A stretch of 64,000 nt of DNA, from assembly GCA_963716045.1 (NCBI GenBank), contig CAVQSS010000006.1:1743-65742 (forward strand). Direction: 5' to 3'. The first letter of the stretch is position 1. Each line of letters opens with the position of its first letter. Shown here piece by piece: positions 11,347 to 63,941 of the stretch. Below the pieces are notes generated by a model. That model searched no databases. It saw nothing but the letters and a program-made list of their open reading frames with translations, and was not told where the DNA came from. This DNA comes from an uncultured delta proteobacterium (GTDB lineage: Bacteria > Desulfobacterota > RBG-13-43-22). A program made the translations under genes and the position numbers.

Positions 11347-11357
11347 GGGTTAACCGG

Positions 11358-11403
11358 TTAATAATTAACAATTAATTATTGATTATTGATAATTTGTCTT
11401 TTC
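11358..11403. repeat. family A AT-rich repeat
   Basis: ttaataattaacaattaattattgattattgataatttgtctttt, nearly identical to 5573-5616. Confidence 0.8.
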
Positions 11404-11421
11404 AGGAAAGGAAATCCAGCC

Positions 11422-12579: not shown

Positions 12580-12582
12580 AGG

Positions 12583-12715
12583 CCGTGAGGCGTTAGGCGT
12601 GAGGAGTAAGGGGAAAAAACAACTTTAAGGAAAGAGGTTCTTTGCGCAGGTTGCCTGGTGATAAATTAGTCAGTCCGACTAAAACGCCTTGCTCCTTACG
12701 CCTTGCTCCTTACGG
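12583..12715. repeat. intercistronic long hairpin with tandem-unit arms (GGCGTGAG / CTTACGCC type)
   Basis: Arm 12583-12613 and arm 12687-12715 are complementary apart from a few transitions and mismatches. The spacer is ~73 nt. Confidence 0.7.
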
Positions 12716-12724
12716 GTTTTATCG

Positions 12725-13609: not shown

Positions 13610-13751
13610 GTTTGTTGCTGGTTACTCGTTGCTGGTTACTGGATAAACAACCTAAATGAATTGTGATGAATCGAATTTTGGACAGGACTTCAATGGATTT
13701 TGTCTCCAATGACTACCAACCGGCAACCAACAACGTGCAACCAGCAACAGG
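13610..13751. repeat. intercistronic long hairpin with tandem-unit arms (TTGCTGGTTAC type)
   Basis: Arm 13610-13642 and arm 13716-13751 are complementary with 5 mismatches. The spacer is ~73 nt. Related half-units occur at 8494-8516 and 9972-10008. Confidence 0.7.
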
Positions 13752-13760
13752 TTCTTGATC

Positions 13761-16561: not shown

Positions 16562-18478
16562 ATGGCGAATATGACTGAATCCATTAAAACCCTCCCGGGC
16601 CTGCTGAAACGCAACGCCCGGGAGTTCGGGCCGGATAAAGTGGCCCTGCGCGAGAAGGAATTCGGTATCTGGCAGTCCGTTTCCTGGCAGGACTATTTCG
16701 ACCGGATTCGAAGCCTGGCCTTAGGCCTGGTGGAACTGGGGTACGAGAAAGGCGATAAGCTCTCGGTCATCGGGGACAATCGCCCGGAGTGGCTCTATTC
16801 GGAACTGGCCATCCAGGCCTTAGGAGGGGCGGTGGTCGGGATTTACCCTGACAGCCACCTGGAGCAGGTCCGCTATATCATCGACCACTCCGATTCGGTA
16901 TTCATCATGGTGGAGGACCAGGAACAGACCGACAAGATCCTGAACATGATCGATGAGATCCCCAAGGTCAAGAAAGTTATCGTGGATGACCAGAAAGGGA
17001 TGCGCCGCTACGACCACCCGTTGCTCATTCCCCTCATGCGGGTCCTGGAGATGGGCCGGGAGGCGGACCGAAAAGATCCCGCGCTTTTTGACCGGATTCT
17101 GGATCAGGTCAGCGAAGAGGACGTGGCCATGATCCTTTATACCTCGGGGACGACGGGCCTGCCCAAAGGGGTGATGCTCACCCACCGCAACATGGTTCGG
17201 ATGATCGAAAATTTCGATCAGGTGGACCCGGCCTTCCCGACCGACAATCACGTCTCTTTTCTGCCCTTGCCCTGGGTGGGCGAACAGGCCACCGCCGTGG
17301 CCTGGAACCTGTACAAGGGCGTGACCATCAATTTTCCGGAAAAAGTGGAAACCGTCTCCGTGGACATTCGGGACATCGGTCCGAACCTCCTGCTGGCGCC
17401 GCCCCGCCACTGGGAAAAGATGTGTTCCGACATCCAGGTCAAGATCCAGGATGCGGCCTGGATCAAGCGCTTCCTTTATAAACGCTGCATGCCCGTCGGC
17501 TACCGGATGGCTGAATTTCGACTGAAAGGGACCCGACCCGGGGTTCTTTACACCCTGCTGGACAAGGCCTGTTACCTGCTGCTGTTCCGCTCGCTGAAGA
17601 ATTATCTGGGGCTGACCAACCTGCGGAATGTCTACACTGGCGGGGCCCCCATCGGGCCGGAGGTTTTTAATTTTTTCATGGCCCTGGGCATCAACATCAA
17701 GCAGCTTTACGGGCAGACCGAGGTCACCGGCCTGGCCGTGGGACACCGCAACGAAAACGTAAAATTGAATACCGTCGGCGCTCCCATGCCGGAAGTGGAA
17801 CTGAAAATTTCGGATGTGGGAGAAATCCTGATCCAAGGACCGATCGTTTTTAAAGGCTATTACAAAAACGAGGAGGCCACCCGCAAAACCCTGGACGCGG
17901 AAGGGTGGGTCCATACCGGCGATGAAGGCCTCCTGGATGAAGACGGCCAACTGGTCATGATCGACCGGCAGAAAGACGTGATGCGTCTGGGAGACGGCAG
18001 CAAGTTTTCCCCCCAGCTTATTGAAAACAAGTTGAAATTCAGCCCGTATATCAACGAAGCCATGGTGGTGGGCAAGGATCGCCCTTACATCGCGGCCCTG
18101 ATCATCATGGATCTGGGCAACATGGGCAAATGGGCGGAAAACCACAAGATGACCTTTACCACCTTTACCGATCTCTCCCAGAAACCGGAAGTCTACGACC
18201 TGATCGCCGAAGAGATTCGGCAGATCAACCGGTCCCTGCCCAAGGTGGCCCGGGTGAAGCGCTTCGTAATGCTCTATAAGGAATTGGACGCCGACGACGA
18301 CGAGATGACCCGGACCCGAAAGCTCCGGCGGGGCTTCGTGGCCGAACGCTACGCCAATCTGATCGAGGCCCTTTACGAAGACCAGGAGGAACTGGCGGTG
18401 GAGTCCGAGATCCGCTATCAGGACGGGACCGGGTTTACCATGAAGACCCAAGTCAGGATCAAAGAGGTTAAGGACTAA
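16562..18478 (+). CDS. AMP-binding long-chain acyl-CoA synthetase family protein
   Basis: YTSGTTGLPKGV (AMP-binding motif), GQTEVTG and TGDEG. Length 638 aa. Confidence 0.85.
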   Translation: MANMTESIKTLPGLLKRNAREFGPDKVALREKEFGIWQSVSWQDYFDRIRSLALGLVELGYEKGDKLSVIGDNRPEWLYSELAIQALGGAVVGIYPDSHLEQVRYIIDHSDSVFIMVEDQEQTDKILNMIDEIPKVKKVIVDDQKGMRRYDHPLLIPLMRVLEMGREADRKDPALFDRILDQVSEEDVAMILYTSGTTGLPKGVMLTHRNMVRMIENFDQVDPAFPTDNHVSFLPLPWVGEQATAVAWNLYKGVTINFPEKVETVSVDIRDIGPNLLLAPPRHWEKMCSDIQVKIQDAAWIKRFLYKRCMPVGYRMAEFRLKGTRPGVLYTLLDKACYLLLFRSLKNYLGLTNLRNVYTGGAPIGPEVFNFFMALGINIKQLYGQTEVTGLAVGHRNENVKLNTVGAPMPEVELKISDVGEILIQGPIVFKGYYKNEEATRKTLDAEGWVHTGDEGLLDEDGQLVMIDRQKDVMRLGDGSKFSPQLIENKLKFSPYINEAMVVGKDRPYIAALIIMDLGNMGKWAENHKMTFTTFTDLSQKPEVYDLIAEEIRQINRSLPKVARVKRFVMLYKELDADDDEMTRTRKLRRGFVAERYANLIEALYEDQEELAVESEIRYQDGTGFTMKTQVRIKEVKD

Positions 18479-26463: not shown

Positions 26464-28311
26464 ATGCACGCACTATTGTCGGGAAAAGCGGGAGACCGCA
26501 TGCTGTTGCTGGGCAACGAAGCCATTGTCCGGGGGGCGCTGGAGGCCGGACTGGCCTTCGCCACCGCTTATCCCGGGACACCCTCTTCGGAGGTGCCCTT
26601 GAATTTTTTTCAGATCAGGCAGGAAACAGACCTGTATTTCGAATATTCCACCAATGAAAAGGTGGCGCTGGAAGTGGCCGCCGGGGCCGCCGTCTCCGGA
26701 CTGCGGACCATGGTGACCATGAAACACGTGGGCGTAAATGTGGCCGCCGACCCCTTGATGACCCTGGCCTACACCGGGGTAACCGGCGGGATGGTCATTT
26801 TGACCGCCGACGACCCCTCCTTGTTCTCCAGTCAGAACGAACAGGACAACCGTTTTTACGCCCGGCTTTCCGGCCTGCCCATGCTGGAGCCCACCACCCC
26901 CCAGGAAGCCAAAGACATGACGATCTATGCCTTTGCCCTCTCCGAACAGTTAAACCTGCCGGTCTTGCTGCGGACCACCACCCGGATCAACCACTCCCGG
27001 GGCATTGTCACCCTGGGAGAGATGACACCTCGACGGACGAAAGGAAATTTCGTCAAAGACCCCTTCAGCTACGTCACCGTCCCGGCCGTTTCCCGGAATC
27101 TGCACGTGAAACTTCTCAAAAAATACGATCAGGCCCTGGAAGAGGCCAATCGTTCTTCTTTCAACGCCATTATCGGCCAGGGGAAATTCGGGATCATCAC
27201 CCAGGGGGTCAGCTTCTGTTATGTCCAGGATGCCCTGGAGGAAATGAAGGTCACCGGGGCCTTCTCCGTCTTGAAGGTCGGCTTCTCCTATCCCTTTCCC
27301 GAAAAACTGGTCGAAGAATTCCTAACCCGGGTGGACAAAGTCCTGGTGGTGGAAGAACTGGAAGCCATCATGGAGGAGGCCGTTCGGGCCGCGGCCCAGA
27401 GGATCGGGCGTCAGATCCCCATCGAGGGGAAAGGGCAGGGCCTGCTGACCCGCCTCTACGAATATGAACCGGTCCGGGTCAAGACATCCATAGCCCAATA
27501 TTTTGACCTGCCTTACCAGAAAAAAGAACCGCTGGAAGTCGCGGATGTCCCCGCTCTGCCCGGCCGGCCGCCCAACCTCTGCCCGGGCTGCCCGCATCGT
27601 TCCACTTTTTATGCCGTCAAAAAAGTGGCCGGCGAAGAGGCCATCTACCCCACCGATATCGGCTGCTATACCCTGGGGGTCCTTCCCCCCTTGAGTGTGG
27701 CCGATTTCGTCATCTGCATGGGATCGAGTGTCAGTTCAGCCGCCGGGTTCTCCCGGGCCACGGACAAGCCGGTCATCGCCTTCATCGGCGACTCCACTTT
27801 TTTCCACAGCGGGATAACCGGGTTGATCAATGCCTTCCATAACAACCATCGATTCACCCTGATCATCCTGGACAACGGGACGACGGCCATGACCGGCCAC
27901 CAGCCCCATCCGGGGGTGGACTCTTCCCTGCTGGGCCGACCGAACAACCAGGTTTCCATAGAAGCCCTGGTCAAGGGGATCGGGATTAAGATGGTCACCG
28001 TGGTAAATCCCAAAAAAGTAAAAGAGACCATGGAGGCCGTCACGAAATCTCTGGCTTTCGACGGGGTATCCGTGATCATTTCCCAGGAAATCTGCCCCCT
28101 CTACGCCCGGCGGGTGCTGCCGCCCTCCAAGGCCAAGACCTTCACGGTCAACGAAAGCCGCTGCAAGAACCACCGGGACTGCGTCAATCTTTTTGCCTGT
28201 CCGGCTTTTTATATTGAAGAGGATCGGGTCAAAATCAACGAGAAGCTGTGTATCGGCTGTGCCGTCTGCGCTCAGGTCTGCCCTGAACATGCAATCCTGC
28301 CCCGCAAATAA
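26464..28311 (+). CDS. iorA: indolepyruvate:ferredoxin oxidoreductase alpha subunit
   Basis: 615 aa with TPP-binding GDSTFFHSG and C-terminal ferredoxin motifs CRNHRDCVNLFACP and CIGCAVCAQVCP. Confidence 0.9.
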   Translation: MHALLSGKAGDRMLLLGNEAIVRGALEAGLAFATAYPGTPSSEVPLNFFQIRQETDLYFEYSTNEKVALEVAAGAAVSGLRTMVTMKHVGVNVAADPLMTLAYTGVTGGMVILTADDPSLFSSQNEQDNRFYARLSGLPMLEPTTPQEAKDMTIYAFALSEQLNLPVLLRTTTRINHSRGIVTLGEMTPRRTKGNFVKDPFSYVTVPAVSRNLHVKLLKKYDQALEEANRSSFNAIIGQGKFGIITQGVSFCYVQDALEEMKVTGAFSVLKVGFSYPFPEKLVEEFLTRVDKVLVVEELEAIMEEAVRAAAQRIGRQIPIEGKGQGLLTRLYEYEPVRVKTSIAQYFDLPYQKKEPLEVADVPALPGRPPNLCPGCPHRSTFYAVKKVAGEEAIYPTDIGCYTLGVLPPLSVADFVICMGSSVSSAAGFSRATDKPVIAFIGDSTFFHSGITGLINAFHNNHRFTLIILDNGTTAMTGHQPHPGVDSSLLGRPNNQVSIEALVKGIGIKMVTVVNPKKVKETMEAVTKSLAFDGVSVIISQEICPLYARRVLPPSKAKTFTVNESRCKNHRDCVNLFACPAFYIEEDRVKINEKLCIGCAVCAQVCPEHAILPRK

Positions 28312-39365: not shown

Positions 39366-40805
39366 TTAAAGCTTATATTTCCCTTCGCTTTTCATGAAGG
39401 GTCCCCAGCCCTGTATTTGGTCCTCGAAACCTTTTCGGCCCAATAAGGCATAGGCCAGCACCTTCCCCTGTTCCACCCCGGGTTGATCCAGGGGGTCGAT
39501 GGTCAGGAGCTGTCCGCAAAGATAGGTTTCGAGTTCTAAGAGAAACAACAACTGCCCGACGGTGAAGGGGTTGATTCTCGGCAAGATAATCAAAAGACTG
39601 GGACGGCCATTTTTTGCCAGGCTCATCCGGGTAGCCTGTAATTCGGCCTGGATCAACTCGTTTAAAGAGTGCCCGCCCAAGCAGGCCAGCGCTTCGGTCT
39701 CGGGGTACATTTTGGGGATGGGCAGCAACCCCGCATAATTTTTTACCCCCACCAGGGTCAGCACTTTGTCGGGAGGCCCTTCCAGATACAATTGCAATTG
39801 CGAATGTTGGTCCGTGGCGCCTAAGGCTACAATGGGGGTCTGCCCGGTCGAAACCTCCTGGCCCTGTTGGTTAAACCGTTTTCCCAGACTCTCGGCCCAA
39901 AGCTGGACAAACCATTCCCCGACGCCTTTTAAGGCATCCACATAGGGCATAAAGACCCGGATGGATTTTTGCTTCTTTTGATAGGCCAGGTAGGCCAAGG
40001 CAGCGCCAAGGCAGGCGGGGTTTTTCAGGACCTCTTCATTCCGGCAGCGTTGTTCCATTTCCCGGGCACCGGCCAGAAGTTCACTGATGTCGATACCCAC
40101 CATGGCCGCCGGCAACAACCCCACGGCGGAAAATACGGAAAACCTTCCACCCAGCAGAGGGGGGATTGAAAAACTGGCGATTTGTTCGTCCTGGGCGATC
40201 TTCCGCAGAATTCCTTTGGTCGGATCGGTGGTAATCACCAGATGGTCCACTTCCTTCTTATTCCCCAATCGTTTTTTGAGGATCTCGCGGACGATCAGAA
40301 ACTGACTCATGGTTTCGGCCGTCCCACCGGATTTGCTGATCACGTTGAAAAGGGTTTTTCGGATATCGACCATGTCCAGCAGGGCCTTAAAGCCGTCGGG
40401 ATCCACATTGTCGCAGACGAAAAGACGGGAAAAGCCCTTGCGCATGGTACGCGACTGCAGGTTGTAGTGAGGATGGTTCAAGGCAGTTTGCAGGGCCCTG
40501 GTCCCCAGCGCCGACCCACCGATCCCCAATACCACAAAATTTTCCACCCAGCCTTTAACCTGGCGGGTATATTTTTTGAGCTCGTTGATCAGGGAAGGAT
40601 GGAAGGGCATCGTTAAAAAAGGAAGCTGGTCATCGGTTCGCTTCTTCGAAAGGTCCTGATGAATCTCCTGGAACCTGGGGATCAAGGCCTTGATTTCCTC
40701 CTCGATAATTCCCGCCCCCGGATCCAACGGAGGGGCCATCATCAGGTTATAATCCAGTTCCAACTTCATTTCTTCCACCCAACTTGGATCCTGCCACCGT
40801 TTCAT
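39366..40805 (-). CDS. pgi: glucose-6-phosphate isomerase
   Basis: VLGIGGSALG, SKSGGTAET, GGRFSV and the LGATDQHSQLQL motif. Met 40805 is preceded by GAGGGAG. The upstream extension to 40997 overlaps the next gene and is rejected. Confidence 0.85.
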   Translation of the reverse strand: MKRWQDPSWVEEMKLELDYNLMMAPPLDPGAGIIEEEIKALIPRFQEIHQDLSKKRTDDQLPFLTMPFHPSLINELKKYTRQVKGWVENFVVLGIGGSALGTRALQTALNHPHYNLQSRTMRKGFSRLFVCDNVDPDGFKALLDMVDIRKTLFNVISKSGGTAETMSQFLIVREILKKRLGNKKEVDHLVITTDPTKGILRKIAQDEQIASFSIPPLLGGRFSVFSAVGLLPAAMVGIDISELLAGAREMEQRCRNEEVLKNPACLGAALAYLAYQKKQKSIRVFMPYVDALKGVGEWFVQLWAESLGKRFNQQGQEVSTGQTPIVALGATDQHSQLQLYLEGPPDKVLTLVGVKNYAGLLPIPKMYPETEALACLGGHSLNELIQAELQATRMSLAKNGRPSLLIILPRINPFTVGQLLFLLELETYLCGQLLTIDPLDQPGVEQGKVLAYALLGRKGFEDQIQGWGPFMKSEGKYKL

Positions 40806-40993
40806 GGAGTTACGCTCCCTCAAAATATAATGCCAACAAGGTTTATCCCCTGATTGGCTCAAAAACCTGTTCCACTTAACTAACCTACAACTCCTTTCGA
40901 AGCACCTTATTAGCGCTTGGGAGCAGGGGGGATTTGCAGAGCCCAGCCTTTCTTTCAGTTTCCTTGTGGAGCTGAGACTCCATGTACCAGGCG

Positions 40994-41311
40994 TCAAGGC
41001 GTTTCAGTTAAGACAACCCGGCTGTCAAACCGCAAGACCTTAAGGCCTAAACCGGATGAATATTGGTCACGGTGTTTATCCTTTTGGAGATGATTTCCCT
41101 CCAAGTGCTGGGATCCGTCCACCTCTACAACCAACTTTACCCTGGGGGCGAAAAAATCAACGATATGCCGACCTAGGGGTTTTTGTCTATAAAACTGTAC
41201 CCCGAGAATTCGTTTCCCCGCAGGCGATGCCACAGATCTTGTTCACTCTCTGTTAGGTTCCTGCCGTAAATCTCGGGCCGGAATTCTTAGATTTTCCGAA
41301 TACCGCAGCAT
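40994..41311 (-). pseudogene. DUF559 (endonuclease-like) family gene broken by two frameshifts
   Basis: Three frames together give ARDLRQEPTESEQDLWHRLRGNEFSG / FYRQKPLGRHIVDFFAPRVKLVVEVDGSQH...LRF, the typical DUF559 pattern. Confidence 0.6.
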
Positions 41312-54074: not shown

Positions 54075-54761
54075 ATGACGTTTACTTCTTTTGTCGAAGG
54101 ACCCCTAGTCTGGATCGCCTTTTTAACCTTCCTCGTCGGAAGCGCCCTGCGCTTACTCTTTTTCATTACCCTAAGTACCAAAAAGGACAAACCTGTTTAC
54201 CGCTATTTCAGTTTTAAATGGATGAGTCTTTCCATCCTTCGCTGGTTACTCCCCTTAAATGTGGACATTAAAAAAACCCCCGTCTTTACCATTCTGGGAT
54301 ACGTCTTTCATGTCTGTCTCCTGGCGGTTCCCATCTTCTTCAGCGCCCATGTGACCCTCTGGCAGGAAAGCCGCTTTGGCTGGAGCTGGTGGCAGATGCC
54401 GGACAACTGGGCGGATTGGATGACCCTGATTTTAATCGCCATCACCATTTTCTTTATCGTGCGAAGAATAGTTCTGGCCGAAGTCCGGATCATCAGCACC
54501 GCCTCGGATTACCTTCTCTTGATCGTCTGTGCCCTGCCTTTCATCACCGGCTACATCAACACCCACCCGGACGGCAGCGCCTACGCCTGGGTGACCTCGG
54601 CCCTGCCTTTCTATGGGCAGTACACCACCATCATCCACATCCTGACCGGTGAACTGATGTTGATTCTGGTCCCTTTTTCCAAATTATCCCACTGGATCTT
54701 GTTTTTTGTTTCCCGCTCGGTCATCGGTATTGAATTCGGGCGAAGGAACTATTCCGTTTAA
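54075..54761 (+). CDS. NarI/DsrM-like integral membrane cytochrome b subunit
   Basis: AAGGAGG SD, five or six TM helices, and conserved His residues (GYVFHVCLL, IIHILTG, SKLSH). Confidence 0.7.
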   Translation: MTFTSFVEGPLVWIAFLTFLVGSALRLLFFITLSTKKDKPVYRYFSFKWMSLSILRWLLPLNVDIKKTPVFTILGYVFHVCLLAVPIFFSAHVTLWQESRFGWSWWQMPDNWADWMTLILIAITIFFIVRRIVLAEVRIISTASDYLLLIVCALPFITGYINTHPDGSAYAWVTSALPFYGQYTTIIHILTGELMLILVPFSKLSHWILFFVSRSVIGIEFGRRNYSV

Positions 54762-54806: not shown

Positions 54807-56135
54807 ATGGCTGAAGCGCAAACCCAACCGATGACCATCAACCCGGAATCCATTCGCCAGGCGGTGGACGTCCGGATGAATGCCCGCCTCAAGATGTGGA
54901 TGCGGATCTGTGCCCACTGCGGTCTCTGTGCGGATACCTGCCACTTCTACACCGCCAAAAACAAAGACCCCCGGATGGTGCCCTCTTTCAAGGCCCAGAA
55001 ATTAAAAAAACTGGTAAAGAAAAAAGGGCAGGTCGACGAGAAATTTATGCAGGAACTCTACGACACGGCCTACGGGGAGTGCACCCTCTGCCGCCGCTGC
55101 ACCCTTTATTGCCCCTTCGGGATAGATATGGCCATGATGGTGGCTACGATGAGAGGAATATTGACCTCTCAGGGAATGACCCCGGAAGGGTTGAAGGCGG
55201 CGATTCAGAATTATTTGGATACCGGCAACCAGATGGCGGTCTCCGAAGAGGACTGGGTGGAGACCCTGAAATGGATGGAGGAGGAACTGCAGGAAGAACT
55301 GCCCGGCGCCACCATCCCCATCGATAAGAAGGGCGCCAAGATTATGTACACCGTCAATGCCCGGGAGCCTAAATATTATCCCCAGGATATTCAGTTGGCG
55401 GCCAAGATCTTTCATGTGGTCGGAGAAGACTGGACCTTCCCCAGCAAGCCGGGCTGGGATGATACCAACCTGGCCATGTTTGCCGGGGATATCAAGACGG
55501 CCGGTTATATCGTCAAATTAATTAAAGAAGCCGCGGAGGAACTGCAGGTCCAACGGGTCGTCATAACCGAGTGAGGCCACGCGCTTAGGGCCGTTCAGTT
55601 TGAAGGGCCGATCTGGTTGAATGCCGATTACAAGTTCGAGGTTGTTCACAGTATAAAACTCTTTGCCGAGTATATCCGCGAGGGCCGACTGAAGTTTACC
55701 CGAAAACTCACCGAGCCGATTACCTATCAGGACCCCTGCAATGTTTCCCGAAGCGGCGGCCTGGCCGATGAAGCCCGGTTCATTATCAGCCATATCGCCG
55801 AAGACTTCCGGGAAATGACCCCCCACGGAAACGAAGCGTACTGCTGCTCCGGCGGCGGGGGCGCCATCCCCATGGGTCCCCCTTTTAAAAAGCGCCGCAT
55901 GGAGGCCGGGAAAGTGAAGGCCGATCAGATCCGGGCCACCGGCGCCAAGATCGTCATCTGCCCCTGCCACAACTGCTATGACCAGTGCCGCGACCTGGGA
56001 AAAGAATACGACCTGGGAATCAAGATCATGTCCTTCAAAGAGATTTTCGAGGAGATCATGTACATCCCCGAGGAACTGAAGGCCAAGGAAGAAGAAGAAA
56101 CGGAAGAAGGTGAAGATAAAGGGGCGGAAGAATAA
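54807..56135 (+). CDS. DsrK/HdrD-like Fe-S oxidoreductase, probable selenoprotein (Sec at codon 256, TGA 55572-55574)
   Basis: Two ferredoxin motifs (CAHCGLCADTC, CTLCRRCTLYCP) and CCG-type motifs (PCNVSR, CCSGGGG, CPCHNC). Track ORFs 54807-55574 and 55617-56135 are in the same frame and split only by TGA, giving VVITE-U-GHALRAVQFEG. Confidence 0.75.
55589..55609 (+). promoter_or_regulatory. SECIS-like stem-loop
   Basis: GGCCGUUCA-GUU-UGAAGGGCC, with 8 bp and one G/G mismatch. It begins 14 nt after the UGA, and the apical GUU loop is 23 nt from it. Confidence 0.55.
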
Positions 56136-56479: not shown

Positions 56480-57478
56480 ATGTCCATCAAGGTCGCTATA
56501 AACGGGTTTGGAAGAATTGGGAGGCTGGTGTATCGAGCCGGTTTCAAGAGCAACGCGGTTGAATTCGTGGCCGTCAATGATCTGGCCGACGCCCGGACCC
56601 TGGCCCATCTCCTGAAATACGATTCGGTCCACGGGATCCTGAACGCGGAAGTCAAGGCCGTTGAAAACGCCATTCGGGTGGACGGGAAGGAAATCAAGAC
56701 CTTCGCCATGAAGGATCCCTCGGAACTGCCCTGGAAGGCCCTGGGAGTCGATGTGGTCCTGGAGAGCACCGGCAAATTTACCGACCGGGCGGGCGCCGAA
56801 AAACACCTTCTGGCCGGGGCCAAAAAAGTGGTCATTTCCGCGCCGGCCAAAAACCCGGATGTTACGGTGGTCTTTGGCATTAACCCGGAGCAGTACGACA
56901 AAACCCTACACCACGTCATCTCCATGGGTTCCTGCACCACCAACTGCCTGGCCCCGGTGGTCCGCATCCTGCAGAGGGAATTCGGGGTGGAGTACGGCCT
57001 GATGACCACGATTCATGCCTATACCAACGATCAGGTCATCCATGACGAGCCGCACAAGGACCTGCGCCGGGCCCGGGCGGCCGCCTTGTCCATGATCCCC
57101 ACCACCACCGGGGCGGCCAGGGCCATCGCCGAGGTCATCCCGGAAATGAAAGGCCGACTGGACGGCCTGGCCATTCGGGTGCCTGTGCCCAATGTCTCCC
57201 TGGTCGATTTCGTGGCGACTTTATCCAGGACCACCAGTAAGGACGAAGTCAATTCCAAGTTCAGAGAATATGCCGCCGGGCCCTTGAAGGGCATCCTGCG
57301 CTGCTCCGAGGAGGAACTGGTATCCCTGGATTTTAACGGGGACCCCCATTCCTCGATCGTGGACCTGCCCAACACCACCGTGATCGGCGGCACCATTGTC
57401 AAGGTCCTTTCCTGGTATGACAATGAATGGGGCTTTTCCAACCGGATGCTGGAGCTTTTATCCTTTATAATGAAATGA
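56480..57478 (+). CDS. gap: type I glyceraldehyde-3-phosphate dehydrogenase
   Basis: INGFGRIGRLV, active site SCTTNCLAP, and WYDNEWGFSNR. Confidence 0.95.
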   Translation: MSIKVAINGFGRIGRLVYRAGFKSNAVEFVAVNDLADARTLAHLLKYDSVHGILNAEVKAVENAIRVDGKEIKTFAMKDPSELPWKALGVDVVLESTGKFTDRAGAEKHLLAGAKKVVISAPAKNPDVTVVFGINPEQYDKTLHHVISMGSCTTNCLAPVVRILQREFGVEYGLMTTIHAYTNDQVIHDEPHKDLRRARAAALSMIPTTTGAARAIAEVIPEMKGRLDGLAIRVPVPNVSLVDFVATLSRTTSKDEVNSKFREYAAGPLKGILRCSEEELVSLDFNGDPHSSIVDLPNTTVIGGTIVKVLSWYDNEWGFSNRMLELLSFIMK

Positions 57479-57506
57479 GGGTTTCACAAAAAGTGTATGC
57501 GCCAGT

Positions 57507-57662
57507 TATTGTCATTCTGAGCGAATGCGAAGAATCTTGTTTTTTCAACAGGTTGCAAAATCCTTCGCGGAGTTTACCCTGAGCCGAAAGACGAGATCCT
57601 TCGCTTCACTCAGGATGACAGGAGGCGAAGGGCTCAGGATGACAAGCGAAGGGTCCAGAATA
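57507..57662. repeat. family B repeat cluster
   Basis: gtcattctgagcgaatgcgaagaatct..., gagatccttcgcttcactcaggatgacag..., ctcaggatgacaag. Confidence 0.75.
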
Positions 57663-57718
57663 ACCTAATTCGAATTTACAGATTCTCTTTCTTGACAGAA
57701 TAAAAGTCTTAAAACCTT

Positions 57719-60700
57719 ATGCCCAATACTGAGAATACTTTTATCTCCAGCGCCTTGCAGGCCAATCTGGAGCGAACCGCCGCTACGGTGGAAATCCCCG
57801 AAAAATACCGGGTCCTGCTCGACATTACCCGGGAGCACTACGGCGTTTTCAAACGAACCCAGGACCTCCTGACGGAAATGAATCATCCTTTCGTGAACTG
57901 GGAGATCGTCCTGAAGCAACTGCGCGCCCTCTCCCTGGGCGACTTCCATGACTTTAACCGCCATGAGAAAGGGTTGGAAGCGCTGGAAACCTTCGTCGAA
58001 ATTTACTTCGAGGTGATCCGTTCCTCCGCCGGGGAAGAAACCCGGGAAACAGCCCTCCGTTACCTCTTTGATTTTCTGGACCTGATCCTGTCCAAGAGCG
58101 GCGGATCGATCGAACGGAATCAAACCCTCTTTCCCGGGCTCATCGCCCGACTCCTCGATTTATCCCGACAGGAGGTTCTCCTTTTCCGGAAAGGTTCGAC
58201 CTATGGGAAGAAGCTCCTGCAGACGGCCCGGGAGCAGTCGTTTTCGTTCGACGGCCTCCCCCTGGATCACTTTCTTCTTCAGGTCTTCCGGGCTACCTAC
58301 TCCTTCTGGCTCGAACAACCCGATCCCCGGGATTGGTTCAACCAGGAAGGGGAGGAGGCTTCCGCCCTCTTCGGCTACGATGCCATCGTCAAGCCCTTGA
58401 CGCATCGGTCGATGGCCGCCCTGCTGGAGGAGTTGAAATCGCTGCCGGAAAGGCCCGGGCCGGAGACCGGCAAGGAAACGGAAGACTACCTGAACCGGCC
58501 CGACTACACCCAGATTGTCGAAGGCTATCTGTTGGTGGCCGACGAACTGGAACGGTCCGGCCTCTATGCCGGCCGGGAATACCTGATCAAACTGGATTTT
58601 CTCTTCCATATCATCAATGTCCCGGCCCTGGCCGATATCCACGGCCGGACGCTGATCGAGATCAACCGCTGTCTGGCCCTGGTGTTCCGGGAGAAAACGC
58701 CGGAGAATTTGAACGATTTTGTTCGCAACGTGTTCCAGCTTTTGAAAAAGTGCACCACCTGTTATCAGTACCGCAGCACCGTCCTGAATTGCATCACTAC
58801 CGTGGCCCGGGAAGTCTTCAAACTGAACCATCACCCCCTGGCGGACACCTTCATCGAGGAGCTGATTGCCTTCGGGTTTCAACATCCGCGGCTCGCCGGC
58901 GCCAATACGGATTGGCAGATCAAGGTCAACCCGGCCCACATCGAGAATATCCGTTCCTGGCTGGAAATCATTGCCCTGAAACCGCGGTGGACCCGGCGGC
59001 TGCTCTCGGCCCTGATCATCAACCTGAAGCTGGCCGGGGTCTTCGTCCGAGATACGGACCTGCTCCAGAAGAACATTTCAACCCTGCTCAACGCTCCTAT
59101 CGGCCCGGCCTTCAATCTGGTCAAGCAACTCCTGCGGTTGTTCCCCATCTACTTCACCGAGATCGGGGCCGAAGGAGAGCTGCGGGAAATTTCCACCGAG
59201 GTGGACGAGATCGCCTTCCGGCAGGATCCGGTCGTCCATTTTCTTCGTAAACAATCGCATGTGGAAAGCAACAGCCTGCTGGTCGCCTTCCTGGAGGACG
59301 CCTTTCGCTACTGGGCCACCGGGAAAAAGTCCTTTCTCCGGGTCCATCTCCCGGAAGAAGTGTATGCCCAGACCCCCGAAGGCGCTCGGGAGACTCGCGG
59401 CCTGCAGACGATCTTCCAAACGCTATTGGGAAAGCTGCGCTCCGACCCCCAGGGTTTCCTGAATTGGGACGGCCCCCGGATAGCCAAAGAGATCCAGGGG
59501 GTGGCCGAGACGCCGGAAAAGGACCGGGAGCGGGCCAGGCTGCTCATCCGGTTCTACCAACTGCTCTATAAGAAATACAACCCCCAGCATATCGATCTGC
59601 TGAAGGACCTGGAGACCTCCTACCTCTTTGAAGCGGCGAAAGTCCGGGACCTCAGACGCCATCTCCAGAACAAGAAACAGGACAAGAGCCTGGCCGTCAT
59701 CCTGGACTTCCTCCTCCAACTGAAGAAGGTGATCCTTTCCCCCGAGAAGACCGAGTATGTGGAGAACATCTACCGCAAGCGCCATATTGCCGCCGGCATC
59801 CCTTCCATGTACGGCACCTATCGTGAAAAAAAATTTGAGGCCCTGGGACTTTCCCTGCGTCTGGAGAGTCTGGCCACGCTGCTCTTTGAAGAACTGATCC
59901 AGTCTTTCAACCTGAAATTTATCACCAAAAGCACCCTGGCGCGCATCCACCAGTACCTCTGGCTCTATGTCAAGGCCCTCGACCTGGAAGGGGTGGCCGT
60001 TGAAGGACTTTCGGCCAAGATGAAGTATGTCAGCCACGCCCTGGAGATCAAACAGTTTTCCATCGACCAGTATATCGACATCTTCCAGTTCATCTCCAAG
60101 GGCATTCAAGACATTATCCGGGAATATTACCTCGAGGTGCACCGCCCCAACCTGCCTTTGATCATTGCTCAAATTTTAAAGGAAGATAGCTCCGCCTTTG
60201 GAGGGCGGGCCGCAGCCCGGGAGGAAGAACTCTTCTATCAGATCTCCGAAAATTTTATCCGCACCGCCATATCGTCGGCCTTCGGCCTCCAGGTGCTGGA
60301 TAATTTCATCAACCAGATCCTGCGCACCCTGCAGGCCGAATTGGAAAAATTTAAGGAGAACAAGCAGATCCTGACCCTGGTGATGGCCTACGAACCGGAG
60401 ACGGCCATCACCCCCTTGTACCGACGCGACAAAAAACTGGACAACCAGATCCGCCTCGGCAACAAAGGCTATTTTCTCAAAGAGCTGTCCTCCATGGGGT
60501 TCCCCGTGCCCCCCGGCTTTGTCCTGACTACCGAGGTCTTCCGCCGGATCGAAGCCCTGCTGGGCTACCAGTACATCATGGATGATCTGAACGTCCGCAT
60601 CGTCCGGGAGATCCGGCGTCTGGAACGGATGGTCGGACGCCATTTCGGAGACCCCCAGAATCCGCTCCTGCTAAGCGTCCGCAGCGGCGCCACCATCTCG

Positions 60701-61936
60701 CTCCCGGGCATGATGCAATCCATCTTGAATGTGGGCATCAACGAAAGGATCGCCGAGGGCTTAAGTCAAAAAAAAGAATTTTCCTGGGCGGCCTGGGATT
60801 CCTATCGGCGGTATCTGCAGAGCTACGGGATGTTGCGGGGTCTGGATCGGAATTTCTTTGATTCCCTGATCGACACCTTTAAACAGCGCTACGGGGTCAG
60901 CCGTAAGATCCAGTTCTCCCCGGATCAGATGCGGTTGGTCGCCCTGGCTTATAAACGGGCCTTGGAAGATAAGGGCCTGGAAGTGCCCGAACGTCCCTGG
61001 GATCAGCTCCAGGACGCCATTCTTCGGGTCATCGACTCCTGGAATTCCGAGCAGGCCCGCATTTACCGCCGTCAGATGCGCCTGTCGGATGAATGGGGAA
61101 CGGCGGTCATCGTGCAGACCATGATTTTCGGCAACTTGAACAACCAATCCGGGTCGGGGGTAATTTTTACCCGGGATCCGAAAAGCTCCGCCTCCGGCAT
61201 CAATTTGTACGGCGATTTCATTTTCGGGGTTCAGGGAGACGACATTGTTTCGGGACTGGTGGCCACCTATCCCATATCGGAGAAACAACGGTTGAATGAA
61301 AGGAAGGACACGGCCATTTCTCTGGAGGCCAATTTCCCCGAGATATTCGGGCAACTGCTCCGTCTTTGCGAAATCCTGATCTATGAGAAACGGTTCAATC
61401 ACCAGGAGATCGAATTTACCTTTGAAAAGGCCGCCCGGGAGGGCCTCTATATCCTGCAGACCCGGGAGATGGTCCAGCGGGAAACCACCAAGCTGCCTAT
61501 TTTCAAAGAAACCCCGGCCTTGAAGACCAGCCTGCTGGGTACCGGCATCGGGGTAAGCGGGGGGGCGTTATCGGGCCGGGCGGTCTATTCCGAAGAGGAG
61601 ATCCGGCAGTATCGTGAAAGCGAACCGGATACGCCGCTCATCCTGATTCGTCCCGATTCCGTACCCGACGACGTGGGGGTTTTGCTTCAGGTGGAAGGGC
61701 TCCTGACGGCCAGGGGGGGCAGCACCTCCCATGCCGCGGTCACGATCCCTCAACTCAACAAGGTCGGCGTGGTGGGATTCACGAAATTAAGCGTCTATGA
61801 AACCAGAGGCTACAGCACCGTGGACGGCCAAACCATCCGCGGAGGGGATTTCATTTCTATTGACGGCTGGAGCGGCGCCGTCTACCAAGGCCGCCACGAG
61901 CGGGAAGCCCAGATGTCCAACCGGGTGACGCTATAA
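57719..61936 (+). CDS. 1405-aa protein: ~850-aa uncharacterised N-terminal region fused to PPDK-like ATP-grasp and phosphohistidine swivel domains (no PEP/pyruvate TIM-barrel domain)
   Basis: The C-terminal third matches pyruvate phosphate dikinase motifs: LGNKGYFLKELSSMGFPVPPGF, LLLSVRSGATISLPGMMQSILNVG, WGTAVIVQTMIFGN, SGSGVIFTRDP, GVQGDDIVSG, and the swivel LLTARGGSTSHAAV. The protein stops shortly after the swivel domain. Confidence 0.8.
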   Translation: MPNTENTFISSALQANLERTAATVEIPEKYRVLLDITREHYGVFKRTQDLLTEMNHPFVNWEIVLKQLRALSLGDFHDFNRHEKGLEALETFVEIYFEVIRSSAGEETRETALRYLFDFLDLILSKSGGSIERNQTLFPGLIARLLDLSRQEVLLFRKGSTYGKKLLQTAREQSFSFDGLPLDHFLLQVFRATYSFWLEQPDPRDWFNQEGEEASALFGYDAIVKPLTHRSMAALLEELKSLPERPGPETGKETEDYLNRPDYTQIVEGYLLVADELERSGLYAGREYLIKLDFLFHIINVPALADIHGRTLIEINRCLALVFREKTPENLNDFVRNVFQLLKKCTTCYQYRSTVLNCITTVAREVFKLNHHPLADTFIEELIAFGFQHPRLAGANTDWQIKVNPAHIENIRSWLEIIALKPRWTRRLLSALIINLKLAGVFVRDTDLLQKNISTLLNAPIGPAFNLVKQLLRLFPIYFTEIGAEGELREISTEVDEIAFRQDPVVHFLRKQSHVESNSLLVAFLEDAFRYWATGKKSFLRVHLPEEVYAQTPEGARETRGLQTIFQTLLGKLRSDPQGFLNWDGPRIAKEIQGVAETPEKDRERARLLIRFYQLLYKKYNPQHIDLLKDLETSYLFEAAKVRDLRRHLQNKKQDKSLAVILDFLLQLKKVILSPEKTEYVENIYRKRHIAAGIPSMYGTYREKKFEALGLSLRLESLATLLFEELIQSFNLKFITKSTLARIHQYLWLYVKALDLEGVAVEGLSAKMKYVSHALEIKQFSIDQYIDIFQFISKGIQDIIREYYLEVHRPNLPLIIAQILKEDSSAFGGRAAAREEELFYQISENFIRTAISSAFGLQVLDNFINQILRTLQAELEKFKENKQILTLVMAYEPETAITPLYRRDKKLDNQIRLGNKGYFLKELSSMGFPVPPGFVLTTEVFRRIEALLGYQYIMDDLNVRIVREIRRLERMVGRHFGDPQNPLLLSVRSGATISLPGMMQSILNVGINERIAEGLSQKKEFSWAAWDSYRRYLQSYGMLRGLDRNFFDSLIDTFKQRYGVSRKIQFSPDQMRLVALAYKRALEDKGLEVPERPWDQLQDAILRVIDSWNSEQARIYRRQMRLSDEWGTAVIVQTMIFGNLNNQSGSGVIFTRDPKSSASGINLYGDFIFGVQGDDIVSGLVATYPISEKQRLNERKDTAISLEANFPEIFGQLLRLCEILIYEKRFNHQEIEFTFEKAAREGLYILQTREMVQRETTKLPIFKETPALKTSLLGTGIGVSGGALSGRAVYSEEEIRQYRESEPDTPLILIRPDSVPDDVGVLLQVEGLLTARGGSTSHAAVTIPQLNKVGVVGFTKLSVYETRGYSTVDGQTIRGGDFISIDGWSGAVYQGRHEREAQMSNRVTL

Positions 61937-61961: not shown

Positions 61962-63239
61962 CTACAGCAACTGCTTATGCACGTGGACAGCCAGGTCCCC
62001 CAATCGGTTGGTGTAGCTCCCATATTCGTTATCATACCAGCCGAAAATTTTGGCGTGGACCACCGGCACCCGGAGGCAATTCTGGGGCAGGGAGGGGATG
62101 GCCTGCGGAGACAGACCGGGGATCCAGGCACAATCGATGTCGATAAACGAGGTCCGGGTATGGTTCATCTGTCCCTCGATCACTACCGCGGCATCCATCC
62201 CAATGAGATCGCTGGAGACATTTTGATCCAGGGAAAAGACCAGCAGGTTTTCCGGGTCCCGCTCCCCCGCTTGCTGATAGATCCGATTGATCGTGTTCGT
62301 ATCCAGCGGCAGAGGCGACCCGTCCGGGTTCATCTTGCTTTGGAAGGTGACATTCAGCACAATCAGGGATTCCGTGTTGGTGGGAACCCGGATGGAGTCG
62401 GCCATGAAACCGATGTTCTTGACCTCCGGGATGACCTCCGCCAGGGCGTCGGCGGCGCCAGTGGAGGTGAGAATGATATTGTTCAGAATGCTTCGATTTT
62501 TCCTCAGGTCCTTCTCCCCCGCTTTCGGCATGGAATCGAGGACCGCCTGGGTATTGGTTGCGGCATGAACCGTAGACATGGAGGCGGTCAGGATCTTGTT
62601 GGTGGCCTCGTTATCCAGCAGGGGTTTGATCATGTGGGCCAGGCAGGTGGTCGTACAGGAAGCGGCCGACAACACCTGGTGGGCCTTTTTATCAAAAGCC
62701 GTGTGGTTGATCCCGCAAATAAGCATGATCGCGTCATCCGGAACGGAGAGGGCCTTGTTCTTGATCTTAAAAGGAGAGGAATTGATGGCGATTCGGGCCC
62801 CGGCCGCCAGATGCCCCCGGAGGGAACCTCCCGGGTCGTCAGGGGGAACCGTGGGGTCCTTGAATTTACCGGTAGTTTCTACGACGATGTCCACTCCGTA
62901 GTCCCGCCATTTAATCTCCGCAGGAATCCGCGACTCCCGGAGAACGGTGACCGGAAGGCCGTCGATCAGCAGCTTGCCGGCCTTTTCGTCCACGATCTCG
63001 ATGAATCGTTGGGCTTTGATCCCGTAGAGAAACCGGTGCAATAGCCCGTAGGTGGAATCGGTTTCAATCCGCTGCGCGATGGCCTGCAGTCCCGTGCCTA
63101 CTTCCCGCCCGGTATTGACCACGATCTCCTGGAAATATTTTCGCCCCAGGTGATGCCAGAGGGTCAGCTTGCCGATCCGGCCCAAACCGTTAATCCCAAT
63201 GACGGGTTTTTTATTTTCAAACACCTCAACGCGCGCCAT
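61962..63239 (-). CDS. long-form glyceraldehyde-3-phosphate dehydrogenase-like protein (425 aa)
   Basis: INGLGRIGKL, active-site-like SCTTTCLAH, and WYDNEYGYTNR-like GWYDNEYGSYTNR, with insertions relative to the 332-aa gap. Confidence 0.8.
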   Translation of the reverse strand: MARVEVFENKKPVIGINGLGRIGKLTLWHHLGRKYFQEIVVNTGREVGTGLQAIAQRIETDSTYGLLHRFLYGIKAQRFIEIVDEKAGKLLIDGLPVTVLRESRIPAEIKWRDYGVDIVVETTGKFKDPTVPPDDPGGSLRGHLAAGARIAINSSPFKIKNKALSVPDDAIMLICGINHTAFDKKAHQVLSAASCTTTCLAHMIKPLLDNEATNKILTASMSTVHAATNTQAVLDSMPKAGEKDLRKNRSILNNIILTSTGAADALAEVIPEVKNIGFMADSIRVPTNTESLIVLNVTFQSKMNPDGSPLPLDTNTINRIYQQAGERDPENLLVFSLDQNVSSDLIGMDAAVVIEGQMNHTRTSFIDIDCAWIPGLSPQAIPSLPQNCLRVPVVHAKIFGWYDNEYGSYTNRLGDLAVHVHKQLL

Positions 63240-63285: not shown

Positions 63286-63675
63286 TTAAAAAACCGATTG
63301 GATATCTGTCTGCGAAAAATCTGCTCCCTTAAACAAAAGAGGTTCCCCGGAGTACTTGGCCAAGGCGTAAGCGCAGCAATCGCCGATATTAAGGCCGGCA
63401 GGATGATTTCCTTTGCCATAAACCCGCCAGGCTGTTCGGGCTATATCGGATTGGTCCGGGTTCATCGCCACGATTTCTATTTGAGCCCGGTGCAATAGAA
63501 GATCCAGTTCACGAGCGCCGGCCTCTCCTTTTTTGGCTTCGATCACGATGGCCGTTTCCAGCCAATTAAATACACTGATCAGACGTCGGGGATCGGCGGC
63601 AATCGCCCTGGCCAATCGTTCCGCTTCTTCTTCCAGAAGCAGAAGAGCAACCAGTGCGGACGAGTCTATGACCAC
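63286..63675 (-). CDS. vapC: type II toxin VapC (PIN domain ribonuclease)
   Basis: VVIDSSALVALLL with an acidic residue pattern. The GTG start overlaps the TAG stop of the upstream antitoxin by 1 nt. Confidence 0.85.
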   Translation of the reverse strand: MVIDSSALVALLLLEEEAERLARAIAADPRRLISVFNWLETAIVIEAKKGEAGARELDLLLHRAQIEIVAMNPDQSDIARTAWRVYGKGNHPAGLNIGDCCAYALAKYSGEPLLFKGADFSQTDIQSVF

Positions 63676-63941
63676 TATTCCGGGACCCCTCTCTGATCAT
63701 AGCCCAGTATTCGATCGGGAGTCCGGGGGTCCAGGTCGGGAAGGCGACTGCAGCGTTCGGCGATCTTCATCACTTCAGCGGTAAGATCCATGGTTGCCCT
63801 CTTCCCCTGCATCCGTTCCAGGCGGTCTTCTATCGCCGTAATGATGGCCTGAGTAATGGTCTCCCCGCTCTTAGAGGCCAATTCCCTGGCCAGTTTTTCC
63901 GCCTTGGGGTTATGAATACTTAGAGCCATATTAGATCCCAT
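63675..63941 (-). CDS. vapB: type II antitoxin VapB (PSK/Rv0623-like)
   Basis: MALSIHNPKAEKLARELASKSGETITQAIITAIEDRLER. The start is Met 63941 or 63929. Confidence 0.75.
   Translation of the reverse strand: MGSNMALSIHNPKAEKLARELASKSGETITQAIITAIEDRLERMQGKRATMDLTAEVMKIAERCSRLPDLDPRTPDRILGYDQRGVPE

Follow-up and report, generated by a model that had tools for sequence, protein, structure and literature searches.

A stretch of 64,000 nucleotides from the genome of an uncultured delta proteobacterium (assembly GCA_963716045.1, contig CAVQSS010000006.1, forward-strand positions 1,743 to 65,742), here termed the window, carries an uninterrupted gene for a protein of 1,405 amino acids, which we call BIG. 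The protein starts with a large novel domain, continues with an ATP-grasp domain of the type found in pyruvate, phosphate dikinase (PPDK) and ends with a swivel phospho-histidine domain; the TIM barrel, which in PPDK serves phosphoenolpyruvate (PEP) and pyruvate, is missing. Next to BIG lies gapL, which encodes a divergent paralogue of glyceraldehyde-3-phosphate dehydrogenase (GAPDH). The features of the locus are:

56480..57478, forward strand: canonical type I GAPDH (gap), 332 amino acids, directly upstream of BIG; TIGR01534 429 bits (cutoff 367)
57719..61936, forward strand: the whole BIG gene, an uninterrupted open reading frame (ORF) of 1,405 amino acids with an ATG start
57719..58855, forward strand: residues 1-379 of BIG, helical and poorly conserved N-terminal arm (AlphaFold model, block conservation)
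58856..60388, forward strand: residues 380-890 of BIG, conserved all-alpha core of the novel domain (invariant columns, block conservation)
60401..61480, forward strand: residues ~895-1254 of BIG, PPDK-type ATP-grasp nucleotide-binding domain (Pfam PPDK_N, PPDK alignment, Foldseek)
61481..61933, forward strand: residues 1255-1405 of BIG, linker and swivel phospho-His domain (PEP-utilizers, 1306-1383)
61962..63239, reverse strand: GapL, a divergent type I phosphorylating GAPDH of 425 amino acids, convergent to BIG across a 25-bp gap

The C-terminal part of BIG harbours the motif series of a PPDK-type cassette. The sequence-only reading of the window had recognised this series, and every motif it quoted is found between residues 914 and 1341 of the protein:

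residues 914-917: GNKG
residues 929-934: PVPPGF
residues 986-991: SVRSGA
residues 996-999: PGMM
residues 1002-1006: ILNVG
residues 1128-1139: TAVIVQTMIFGN
residues 1145-1154: GSGVIFTRDP
residues 1172-1179: QGDDIVSG
residues 1329-1341: LTARGGSTSHAAV, the swivel His motif

Pfam assigns PPDK_N to residues 912-1254 (E 6e-29), followed by the PEP-utilizers mobile domain at residues 1306-1383 (E 6e-11), and no further Pfam domain is found in BIG, even at E <= 0.1. The swivel motif claimed earlier is GGSTSHAAV, in which H1338 (codon CAT, 61730-61732) is the catalytic histidine and T1336 occupies the position of the regulatory threonine of PPDK. Both residues are at least 90% conserved across the BIG family in an alignment of 49 sequences. 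The protein terminates 67 residues past H1338 (about 60 by the earlier estimate), and Pfam detects no PEP/pyruvate TIM barrel there.

Residues 17-516 of the C. symbiosum PPDK (1KBL) align to residues 912-1399 of BIG with an E value of 4e-78; matches of this strength cannot be put down to chance. Beyond PPDK residue 516-517 the PDB alignment does not continue, and the TIM barrel, which starts at about residue 535, is without counterpart in BIG. Up to this point, the residues of PPDK that handle the nucleotide, phosphate (Pi) and the phospho-histidine, including T453 and H455, are all retained, as judged from alignments to 1KBL and 9PZL. Thus, K916, R988, the PGMM loop and R1030/R1031 of BIG correspond to K22, R92, G101-M103 and R135 of the C. 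symbiosum enzyme, while E1230, E1232, Q1247 and R1249 correspond to D321, E323, Q335 and R337; the D321/E323 site reads QEIEFTFE in BIG and the Q335/R337 site LQTR. The modelled dikinase half superimposes on 1KBL with a root-mean-square deviation of 3.1 Å over 544 columns at 32% identity (Foldseek E 4e-31). PEP synthase and rifampin phosphotransferase (RPH) share 16-18% identity with the cassette in the Foldseek comparison. At the level of families, NCBIfam ranks PPDK as nearest to the cassette, and BIG scores below the cutoff of each of these models:

TIGR01828, PPDK: 357 bits, cutoff 843
NF004531, truncated PPDK (a TIM-barrel-less family of 534 amino acids): 302 bits, cutoff 456
NF005057, PEP synthase: 60 bits, cutoff 598
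TIGR01418, PEP synthase: 56 bits, cutoff 740
NF041857, rifampin phosphotransferase: 38.8 bits, cutoff 999

As shown by homology, BIG should bind ATP and move a phosphoryl group from ATP to H1338, and judged by residue conservation the ATP/His chemistry is intact. Since PPDK is a nearer relative of the cassette than either PEP synthase or RPH, Pi and pyrophosphate (PPi) presumably form the co-substrate pair of BIG.

The N-terminal part of the protein is of a different nature. Residues 1 to ~890 match no Pfam or NCBIfam model at E <= 0.1, and a phmmer search of PDB sequences with residues 1-900 returns nothing at E <= 10. The first ~850 residues had previously been described as devoid of recognisable motifs; the absence of matches stands, and the boundary has to be moved to ~890. 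A profile of the family, built from 49 diverse members, retrieves from the PDB designed helical repeats only, at positions 40-370, a match that we reject as homology and attribute to composition; positions 380-880 of the profile match nothing in the PDB.

A confident AlphaFold2 model of residues 1-900, based on an alignment of 61 sequences, is all-alpha save for two small hairpins at 392-403 and 681-702 (predicted local distance difference test, pLDDT, 80.8; predicted template modelling score, pTM, 0.72). A second AlphaFold model of residues 206-1405, based on a deeper alignment of 65 sequences, reaches a pLDDT of 84.3 and a pTM of 0.73. The conserved loops gain in pLDDT in the second model, a gain that is confounded by the deeper alignment and was left unused as evidence. 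A Foldseek search of the PDB with the N-terminal part of both models yields no match at E <= 1e-3, with template modelling (TM) scores of 0.2 or below throughout. Solenoids of the karyopherin, CRM1 or mTOR type were therefore rejected as homologues (E > 1e-3, TM <= 0.2). A repeat solenoid was rejected as well, as hhalign comparisons among seven N-terminal segments give a probability of at most 6% throughout. Across Pfam, NCBIfam, the PDB and Foldseek, the N-terminal region aligns to no substrate domain of a known dikinase.

The conservation of this region was assessed in an alignment of 49 full-length relatives (26-55% identity). The arm formed by residues 1-379 is variable, with a mean identity of 0.14-0.32 per block of 50 amino acids against 48 distant relatives; over the whole region, conservation is low in blocks 101-350 and 551-600 (0.13-0.20). 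Blocks 401-550 and 651-750 reach 0.44-0.55 and are on par with the ATP-grasp and His domains. Invariant are D445, P476, G486, R489, D496, R510, K511, H514, K619, Y620, K687, H689, S696, G699, G758, R848 and D861, and the residues conserved to at least 90% include H56, H407, D447, E485, T493, R501, D503, H507, E682, R688, Y698, Y701, E703 and R714. Many of these residues lie in four core motifs: DTDLxQ (from 445), IGAEGELR (482), FLRKQxHVESN (508) and KRHIAxGIPSMYGxY (687). With its many Arg, Lys, His, Asp and Glu residues, the invariant set would suit Mg2+-dependent phosphoryl transfer to an anionic ligand, and the charged and His residues in the loops resemble a catalytic or ligand site for such a ligand. 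We propose the core at residues 380-890 as a candidate acceptor or partner-binding site, and the architecture and conservation of the protein suggest that the N-terminal domain would be the place where the swivel domain delivers its phosphate. The sequence-only reading had postulated a novel substrate-binding module at the N-terminus, for a substrate other than pyruvate. What can be upheld of this claim is a novel third module: a domain of ~890 residues with a new all-alpha fold is supported by the lack of matches, the active site-like conservation and the fusion to the dikinase cassette.

BIG belongs to a large family. The closest homologues comprise more than 120 full-length proteins of ~1,400 amino acids, which are 59-96% identical over 100% of their length. 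An exhaustive search with residues 1-900 identifies 590 representative clusters at E <= 1e-3 and 207 at E <= 1e-30, and the full-length members among them span 1,350-1,540 amino acids. Seven distant relatives were checked for their domains: PPDK_N is present in all seven and PEP-utilizers in the four complete ones, while the remaining three end short of the PEP-utilizers domain. As far as is visible from the distant full-length relatives checked, the novel N-terminal domain is always fused to the dikinase cassette. The family spans at least five phyla; named sources include Thermodesulfobacteriota (Syntrophales, Syntrophorhabdaceae, Smithella), Candidatus Delongbacteria, Myxococcota and Miltoncostaeaceae, and a cultured organism with BIG is Thermodesulfatator atlanticus. 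In one subclade, a hemerythrin (HHE) domain of ~140 amino acids is added N-terminally (P0142, P0135, P0129 and positions 8480-8875 of locus L097, which reaches no further than the 3' terminus of the BIG gene). These fusion proteins reach 1,540 amino acids, and the additional domain hints at sensing of O2, redox state or iron.

Where source databases name members of the family, they mostly use PPDK, PEP synthase or “PEP/pyruvate-binding domain-containing protein”, with PPDK as the usual choice; such names are labels rather than evidence. Our literature searches found no paper on the family, and an exact-sequence look-up gave no record for either BIG or GapL of the window. The BIG family is widespread, mis-annotated and uncharacterised, and it is placed in central carbon metabolism.

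This placement rests on the genomic surroundings of BIG. Using homology to the N-terminal domain, we gathered 27 genome and 80 metagenome loci, 80 of which extend at least 1.5 kb downstream and were used to count pairs. GapL is encoded within 3 kb of BIG in 75 of these 80 loci and within 420 bp in 69. The two genes are convergent in 64 pairs, including those of the window's clade, and co-directional in 11 pairs, spaced by -13 to 264 bp and all from the distant clade with 35-39% N-terminal identity. Searching from the GapL side also retrieves BIG as neighbour in 4/4 places, which share one exact GapL sequence from a single Syntrophales population of an anaerobic digester. The sequence-only reading had overlooked the pairing of BIG with a divergent GAPDH gene, the feature that is most telling.

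Clustering of the ORFs from the 107 loci reveals no conserved family around BIG except GapL, and no TIM-barrel ORF. When 1.7 Mb of sequence (112 loci and the window) were scanned for PEP-utilizers_C motifs, two isolated chance matches were all that appeared. A separate ORF for the PEP/pyruvate domain is therefore absent from the surroundings of the orthologues, and a TIM barrel supplied in trans is rejected for the neighbourhood of BIG.

The contexts of the pair, with neighbours annotated by Pfam, vary. In T. atlanticus (GCA_000421585.1, ATXH01000004.1; BIG at positions 10001-14224 of locus L108) the order is gap-BIG-gapL-pgk-tpi-secG, on one strand and with short spacers, while locus L098 reads BIG-gapL-gap-pgk-tpi-secG, an order shared by L100 according to tblastn and ORF-family assignment. 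A locus 92% identical to the window (L001) has tpi and pgk beyond gapL, and in L110 BIG-gapL is followed by dnaE-pfk-pyk. In L111, L112 and L113-L116, the BIG and gapL pair stands alone amid unrelated genes. Canonical gap as a neighbour is a feature of T. atlanticus and of the clade to which the window belongs, and it is not kept family-wide. Because of these contexts, we regard the BIG and GapL pair as the conserved unit, which has a looser affinity for the lower-glycolysis operon. In the anaerobic-digester contig L116, a DDE transposase gene (8420-9808) lies between gapL and BIG, and the pair persists; in the sister contigs L113-L115 the two genes are 168 bp apart.

GapL itself retains the hallmarks of a phosphorylating GAPDH. 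It matches Gp_dh_N and Gp_dh_C in Pfam, scores 291 bits on TIGR01534 (under the cutoff of 367) and finds its best PDB match at E 4e-34, with about 30% identity to solved GAPDHs. Across 72 sequences, the GapL family keeps the catalytic residues C149 and H176 (SCTTT, TVHA) and the phosphate-site residues T179, R195 and R231, as well as the motifs KDLRK-R, IRVPT and GWYDNEYG. Since the catalytic and phosphate-site residues are kept, GapL should be a phosphorylating dehydrogenase of a phosphorylated triose, acting on glyceraldehyde-3-phosphate (GAP) and 1,3-bisphosphoglycerate (1,3-BPG). The NAD-specifying Asp32 has given way to Thr in the sequence VNTGRE, of which N-x-G-R is kept across the family; with Thr-Gly-Arg in the place of Asp32, GapL is probably linked to NADP(H). 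Compared to canonical GAPDH, GapL carries six insertions, the largest of which comprises ~29 residues near the C-terminus.

Taken together, BIG is with high probability a novel PPDK-derived dikinase that is functionally coupled to GapL. New are the third module with its new fold and the conserved genetic partner, while the ATP-grasp/His cassette is known. As to the reaction catalyzed, we put forward the following scheme. Having lost the PEP/pyruvate TIM barrel, BIG would use its all-alpha N-terminal domain of ~890 residues as third module. The ATP-grasp domain would bind ATP, and as in PPDK H1338 would accept the beta-phosphoryl group while Pi accepts the gamma-phosphoryl group, yielding PPi. 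The swivel His domain would then swing to the polar cluster of the N-terminal domain (D445/D447, E485-R489, R510-K511-H514, K619-Y620, K687-R688-H689, R848 and D861) and pass the phosphoryl group on to an anionic acceptor. The likeliest acceptor would be the carboxylate of 3-phosphoglycerate (3-PG), and the resulting 1,3-BPG would be reduced by GapL to GAP. In the reverse direction, GapL and BIG would make ATP from AMP and PPi. The pair may hence constitute a PPi-linked bypass of the step catalyzed by GAPDH and phosphoglycerate kinase (PGK) that is independent of PGK. Removal of PPi would pull the BIG reaction towards gluconeogenesis, which would suit autotrophs and syntrophs.

The choice of the acceptor follows from the partner. 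The compounds that GapL deals with are GAP, NAD(P)H, Pi and 1,3-BPG, and since it is the sole constant partner and its phosphate sites are intact, the interconversion of 3-PG and 1,3-BPG is the most economical coupling. From textbook standard values, we calculate about +4 kJ/mol for the reaction ATP + Pi + 3-PG -> AMP + PPi + 1,3-BPG, and thus the proposed reaction appears feasible in both directions. The corresponding values are about +19 kJ/mol for the PGK reaction and about +16 kJ/mol for the PPDK reaction.

Several points weigh against this scheme. The known acceptors of the dikinase superfamily are enol or hydroxyl oxygens, water or Pi, and we know of no precedent for the phosphorylation of a carboxylate in this superfamily. 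BIG does not replace PGK, since the operons that hold BIG in T. atlanticus and L098 contain pgk as well (in L100 by family assignment). Moreover, 890 residues are very large for a 3-PG site, the pairing with an anabolic GAPDH would also fit a gluconeogenic PEP-forming enzyme, and the hemerythrin sensor domain of one subclade is more typical of regulators. The second AlphaFold model, in which the His domain sits at the ATP-grasp site as in 1KBL (the alternative 2R82 state is 14.4 Å away), carries no information on docking to the N-terminal domain. Accordingly, 3-PG/1,3-BPG as the acceptor chemistry of BIG is a tentative assignment, and the full statement of a PPDK-derived dikinase that forms a unit with GapL and acts via 3-PG/1,3-BPG is possible at best. 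That BIG is a “3-phosphoglycerate, phosphate dikinase”, which uses a new-fold acceptor domain and together with GapL provides a PPi-linked alternative to PGK, we consider doubtful.

The same data have been read against other explanations. The PPDK-like cassette, which is specific and wholly intact, and the location of BIG among glycolytic and gluconeogenic genes would also be expected if BIG simply interconverted pyruvate and PEP, the all-alpha domain being a non-homologous replacement of the TIM barrel. In that case, BIG and GapL would form a gluconeogenic pair of a PEP-forming enzyme and an anabolic, probably NADPH-dependent GAPDH, and might resemble the co-regulated pckA and gapB of Bacillus subtilis. 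The missing Asp32 of GapL, which hints at NADP(H), and hosts that as autotrophs or syntrophs are obliged to run gluconeogenesis fit this explanation, and PEP or pyruvate with Mg2+ would likewise be compatible with the invariant Arg, Lys, Asp and Glu residues. Yet, it is unparsimonious to swap a working TIM barrel of 340 residues for an unrelated domain of 890 residues at the other terminus, the PPDK equivalog cutoff is failed widely, and neither the constant choice of GapL as partner, rather than enolase or phosphoglycerate mutase, nor the fact that the pair travels alone is explained. We judge a PPDK analogue to be unlikely. A regulatory role has a precedent in VadK (Rv1127c) of Mycobacterium tuberculosis, a PPDK derivative without TIM barrel, which autophosphorylates at His422 in an ATP- and Mg-dependent manner, pulls down the methylcitrate synthase PrpC and the dehydratase PrpD, and tunes methylcitrate flux (PMC13400623). 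By analogy, BIG might autophosphorylate H1338, bind GapL through its helical N-terminus and modulate, scaffold or phosphorylate this enzyme instead of producing a metabolite, with the N-terminal domain possibly sensing a signal. The score of the cassette on NF004531, the hemerythrin fusion and the one-to-one association with just one enzyme gene, which looks like that of a regulator and its target, speak for such a role. Moreover, the six conserved insertions of GapL could be docking surfaces, and helical protein-binding solenoids are the only folds that the N-terminal domain weakly resembles. However, this domain is no repeat solenoid, its TM-scores stay at or below 0.2, and ~17 invariant, mostly charged or His residues in loops fit a catalytic site better than an interface. 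A regulator of 1,400 residues would also be costly in a housekeeping gap-pgk-tpi operon as in T. atlanticus, and what is proposed for VadK has, mechanistically, no more than the status of a working model. A VadK-like regulator is therefore improbable in our view.

The novelty of the N-terminal domain leaves the choice of acceptor wide, and BIG might phosphorylate D-glyceraldehyde, dihydroxyacetone, glycerate or another metabolite. With D-glyceraldehyde or dihydroxyacetone, the reaction would resemble that of a triokinase and feed GapL or triosephosphate isomerase (TPI), the product GAP or dihydroxyacetone phosphate being the direct substrate of these neighbours. The characterised relatives indeed phosphorylate hydroxyl or enol oxygens (RPH, PMC4844700; HpeHI, PMC12167813; glucan-water dikinase, GWD, PMC13553574). 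Against another acceptor of this kind stand the lack of an evident supply of free trioses in chemolithoautotrophs or fatty-acid syntrophs, the strongly cationic character of the invariant residues, which suggests an anionic rather than a neutral ligand, and a dedicated GAPDH paralogue that would be unexplained when a canonical copy is present. The probability of such an acceptor appears low. Finally, a C-terminal truncation that resembles a broken PPDK raises the thought of an artefact or a decaying gene, in which part of a PPDK would have been joined accidentally to an unrelated ORF. Nothing else was found in its favour, and it has next to no probability: the ~1,400-residue architecture recurs in the more than 120 close homologues and ~590 clusters, in independent assemblies and a cultured isolate, conservation is strong over the whole length and the catalytic residues are intact. 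The distribution data refute an artefact.

BIG works like the swivel-His dikinases and falls outside the families of PPDK, PEP synthase, RPH, GWD and VadK, since the defining TIM barrel, domain order, acceptor domain or score cutoff is not matched. PPDK (EC 2.7.9.1; 1KBL) and BIG have in common the ATP-grasp domain including the PPDK-specific helical subdomain, the linker and the swivel His domain with the motif GG-x-TSHAAV (GGMTSHAAV in PPDK, GGSTSHAAV in BIG). In contrast to PPDK, BIG carries an extra domain of 890 residues at the N-terminus in addition to the missing TIM barrel, has a GAPDH paralogue as neighbour and stays below the TIGR01828 cutoff. PEP synthase is more remote still, with 56 and 60 bits on the equivalogs and a TIM barrel that BIG lacks. 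VadK is likewise derived from PPDK and devoid of the TIM barrel; unlike BIG, it is an actinobacterial protein of ~490 amino acids with no additional domain and with partners from the methylcitrate cycle. BIG is separated from the VadK/NF004531 family (PRK05878; cassette only, ~490-534 amino acids) by its 302 versus 456 bits and by the conserved 890-residue domain.

RPH resembles BIG in having three modules, a swivel His that shuttles the beta-phosphate and, in RPH, a non-TIM acceptor domain (PMC4844700). This acceptor domain is of an unrelated fold and lies between the ATP-grasp and His domains, and the two proteins align over the cassette only; furthermore, RPH releases AMP and Pi with water as co-acceptor and serves antibiotic resistance, not central metabolism. 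The N-terminal region of the glucan-water dikinase GWD1 contains CBM45 starch-binding modules. No GWD is found among the Foldseek matches of BIG, either at E <= 0.001 or among the 50 listed, and neither Pfam nor Foldseek returns a carbohydrate-binding module. GWD1 (~1,460 amino acids) nevertheless resembles BIG in size and in combining a large N-terminal recognition region with a phospho-His and a PPDK-type nucleotide domain (PMC13553574). The order is N-terminal region, His and ATP domain in GWD1, and N-terminal domain, ATP-grasp and His in BIG; moreover, GWD1 is a plant and algal enzyme with water as co-acceptor. The two-component aromatic dikinases phenylphosphate synthase and HpeHI, like BIG, possess an ATP-grasp domain of the PPDK/PEP synthase type and a His carrier, which in their case serve a non-pyruvate acceptor (PMC12167813). 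HpeHI (9GOJ) is also a weak Foldseek match to the BIG cassette (E 2e-4). These enzymes differ from BIG in their separate subunits and phenolic-hydroxyl acceptors, and they have neither the all-alpha domain of 890 residues nor a GAPDH partner.

At the level of the pathway, the proposed couple of BIG and GapL may be compared to PGK and GAPDH, Ask and Asd, or ArgB and ArgC. In such pairs, the donor enzyme makes an acyl phosphate, which the adjacent dehydrogenase of the GAPDH fold reduces. We infer this analogy for the pathway only: PGK, a two-domain kinase of Rossmann-like build, works directly with ATP/ADP and has no sequence or fold relationship to BIG, whereas BIG would employ a phospho-His relay and convert ATP and Pi to AMP and PPi.

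Some further observations concern the surroundings of BIG. The spacer between gap and BIG contains a cluster of short direct and inverted repeats (57500-57665), with three copies of ~19 nucleotides (GCGAAGGGCTCAGGATGAC-like) and a 14-nucleotide inverted repeat (TTGTCATTCTGAGC / GCTCAGGATGACAA), which look like REP-type intergenic elements. A scan for promoters and terminators around BIG gives counts no higher than in shuffled sequence. Directly beside gapL lie a gene for a PIN-domain toxin (63286-63675, reverse strand) and an ORF of 88 amino acids (63675-63941, reverse strand), which probably form a toxin-antitoxin pair; the PIN gene is also present in L003 and is absent from L001. In T. atlanticus (L108, 1-9960), the region upstream of gap harbours an rpoN-hpf-ptsN(EIIA-Ntr)-rapZ-EIIA(Man) cluster. 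These phosphocarrier genes of the nitrogen-phosphotransferase-system type, found in T. atlanticus only, are probably a coincidental neighbour of the PEP-utilizers His domain of BIG.

Elsewhere in the window, a Fer4 ORF (54807-55574, forward strand) and a CCG ORF (55617-56135, forward strand) lie in one frame, split by a TGA codon (55572-55574), and jointly match HmcF/TmcB in NCBIfam, where they cover positions 33-282 and 307-456 of a profile of 457. L001-L003 share this TGA together with its flanking sequence (VVITE-TGA-GHALRAVQFEGPIW), and the split gene probably encodes a selenocysteine-containing, HdrD-like subunit rather than being a pseudogene. Upstream of it, a membrane anchor of the TmcC/HmcE type is encoded at 54075-54761. 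The window also encodes phosphoglucose isomerase (39366-40997, reverse strand), a protein of the 2-oxoacid:ferredoxin oxidoreductase type (POR_N, TPP_enzyme_C, Fer4; 26464-28311, forward strand) and an AMP-forming acyl-CoA ligase (16562-18478, forward strand). The other carbon-metabolism genes of the window would fit an anaerobe with activation reactions that generate AMP and PPi.

The family matters for the annotation of anaerobes. Members of the family that are named PPDK are devoid of a pyruvate/PEP-binding domain. Where BIG is counted as PPDK, in Syntrophales, Syntrophorhabdales, Thermodesulfobacteria or other anaerobes, metabolic reconstructions may therefore err at the PEP-pyruvate node. 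With T. atlanticus, a cultured host is available that makes the direct biochemistry of BIG possible. For the dikinases, the swivel-His cassette has seemingly been re-used with yet another third module, which adopts a new all-alpha fold of ~890 residues. If the proposed reaction holds true, it would be the first in the dikinase superfamily with a carboxylate as acceptor, and after PPi-dependent phosphofructokinase and PPDK it would represent the third PPi-dependent step of glycolysis and gluconeogenesis. The bacteria could then either convert 3-PG into GAP, paying with ATP -> AMP + PPi, or use 1,3-BPG to form ATP from AMP and PPi. The hosts of BIG are anaerobes whose life runs near the thermodynamic limit and depends on AMP/PPi chemistry. 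That BIG is almost always accompanied by a special GAPDH, in some cases within the gap-pgk-tpi operon, is a concrete lead to a reaction or control point of their central carbon metabolism that has not been described before.

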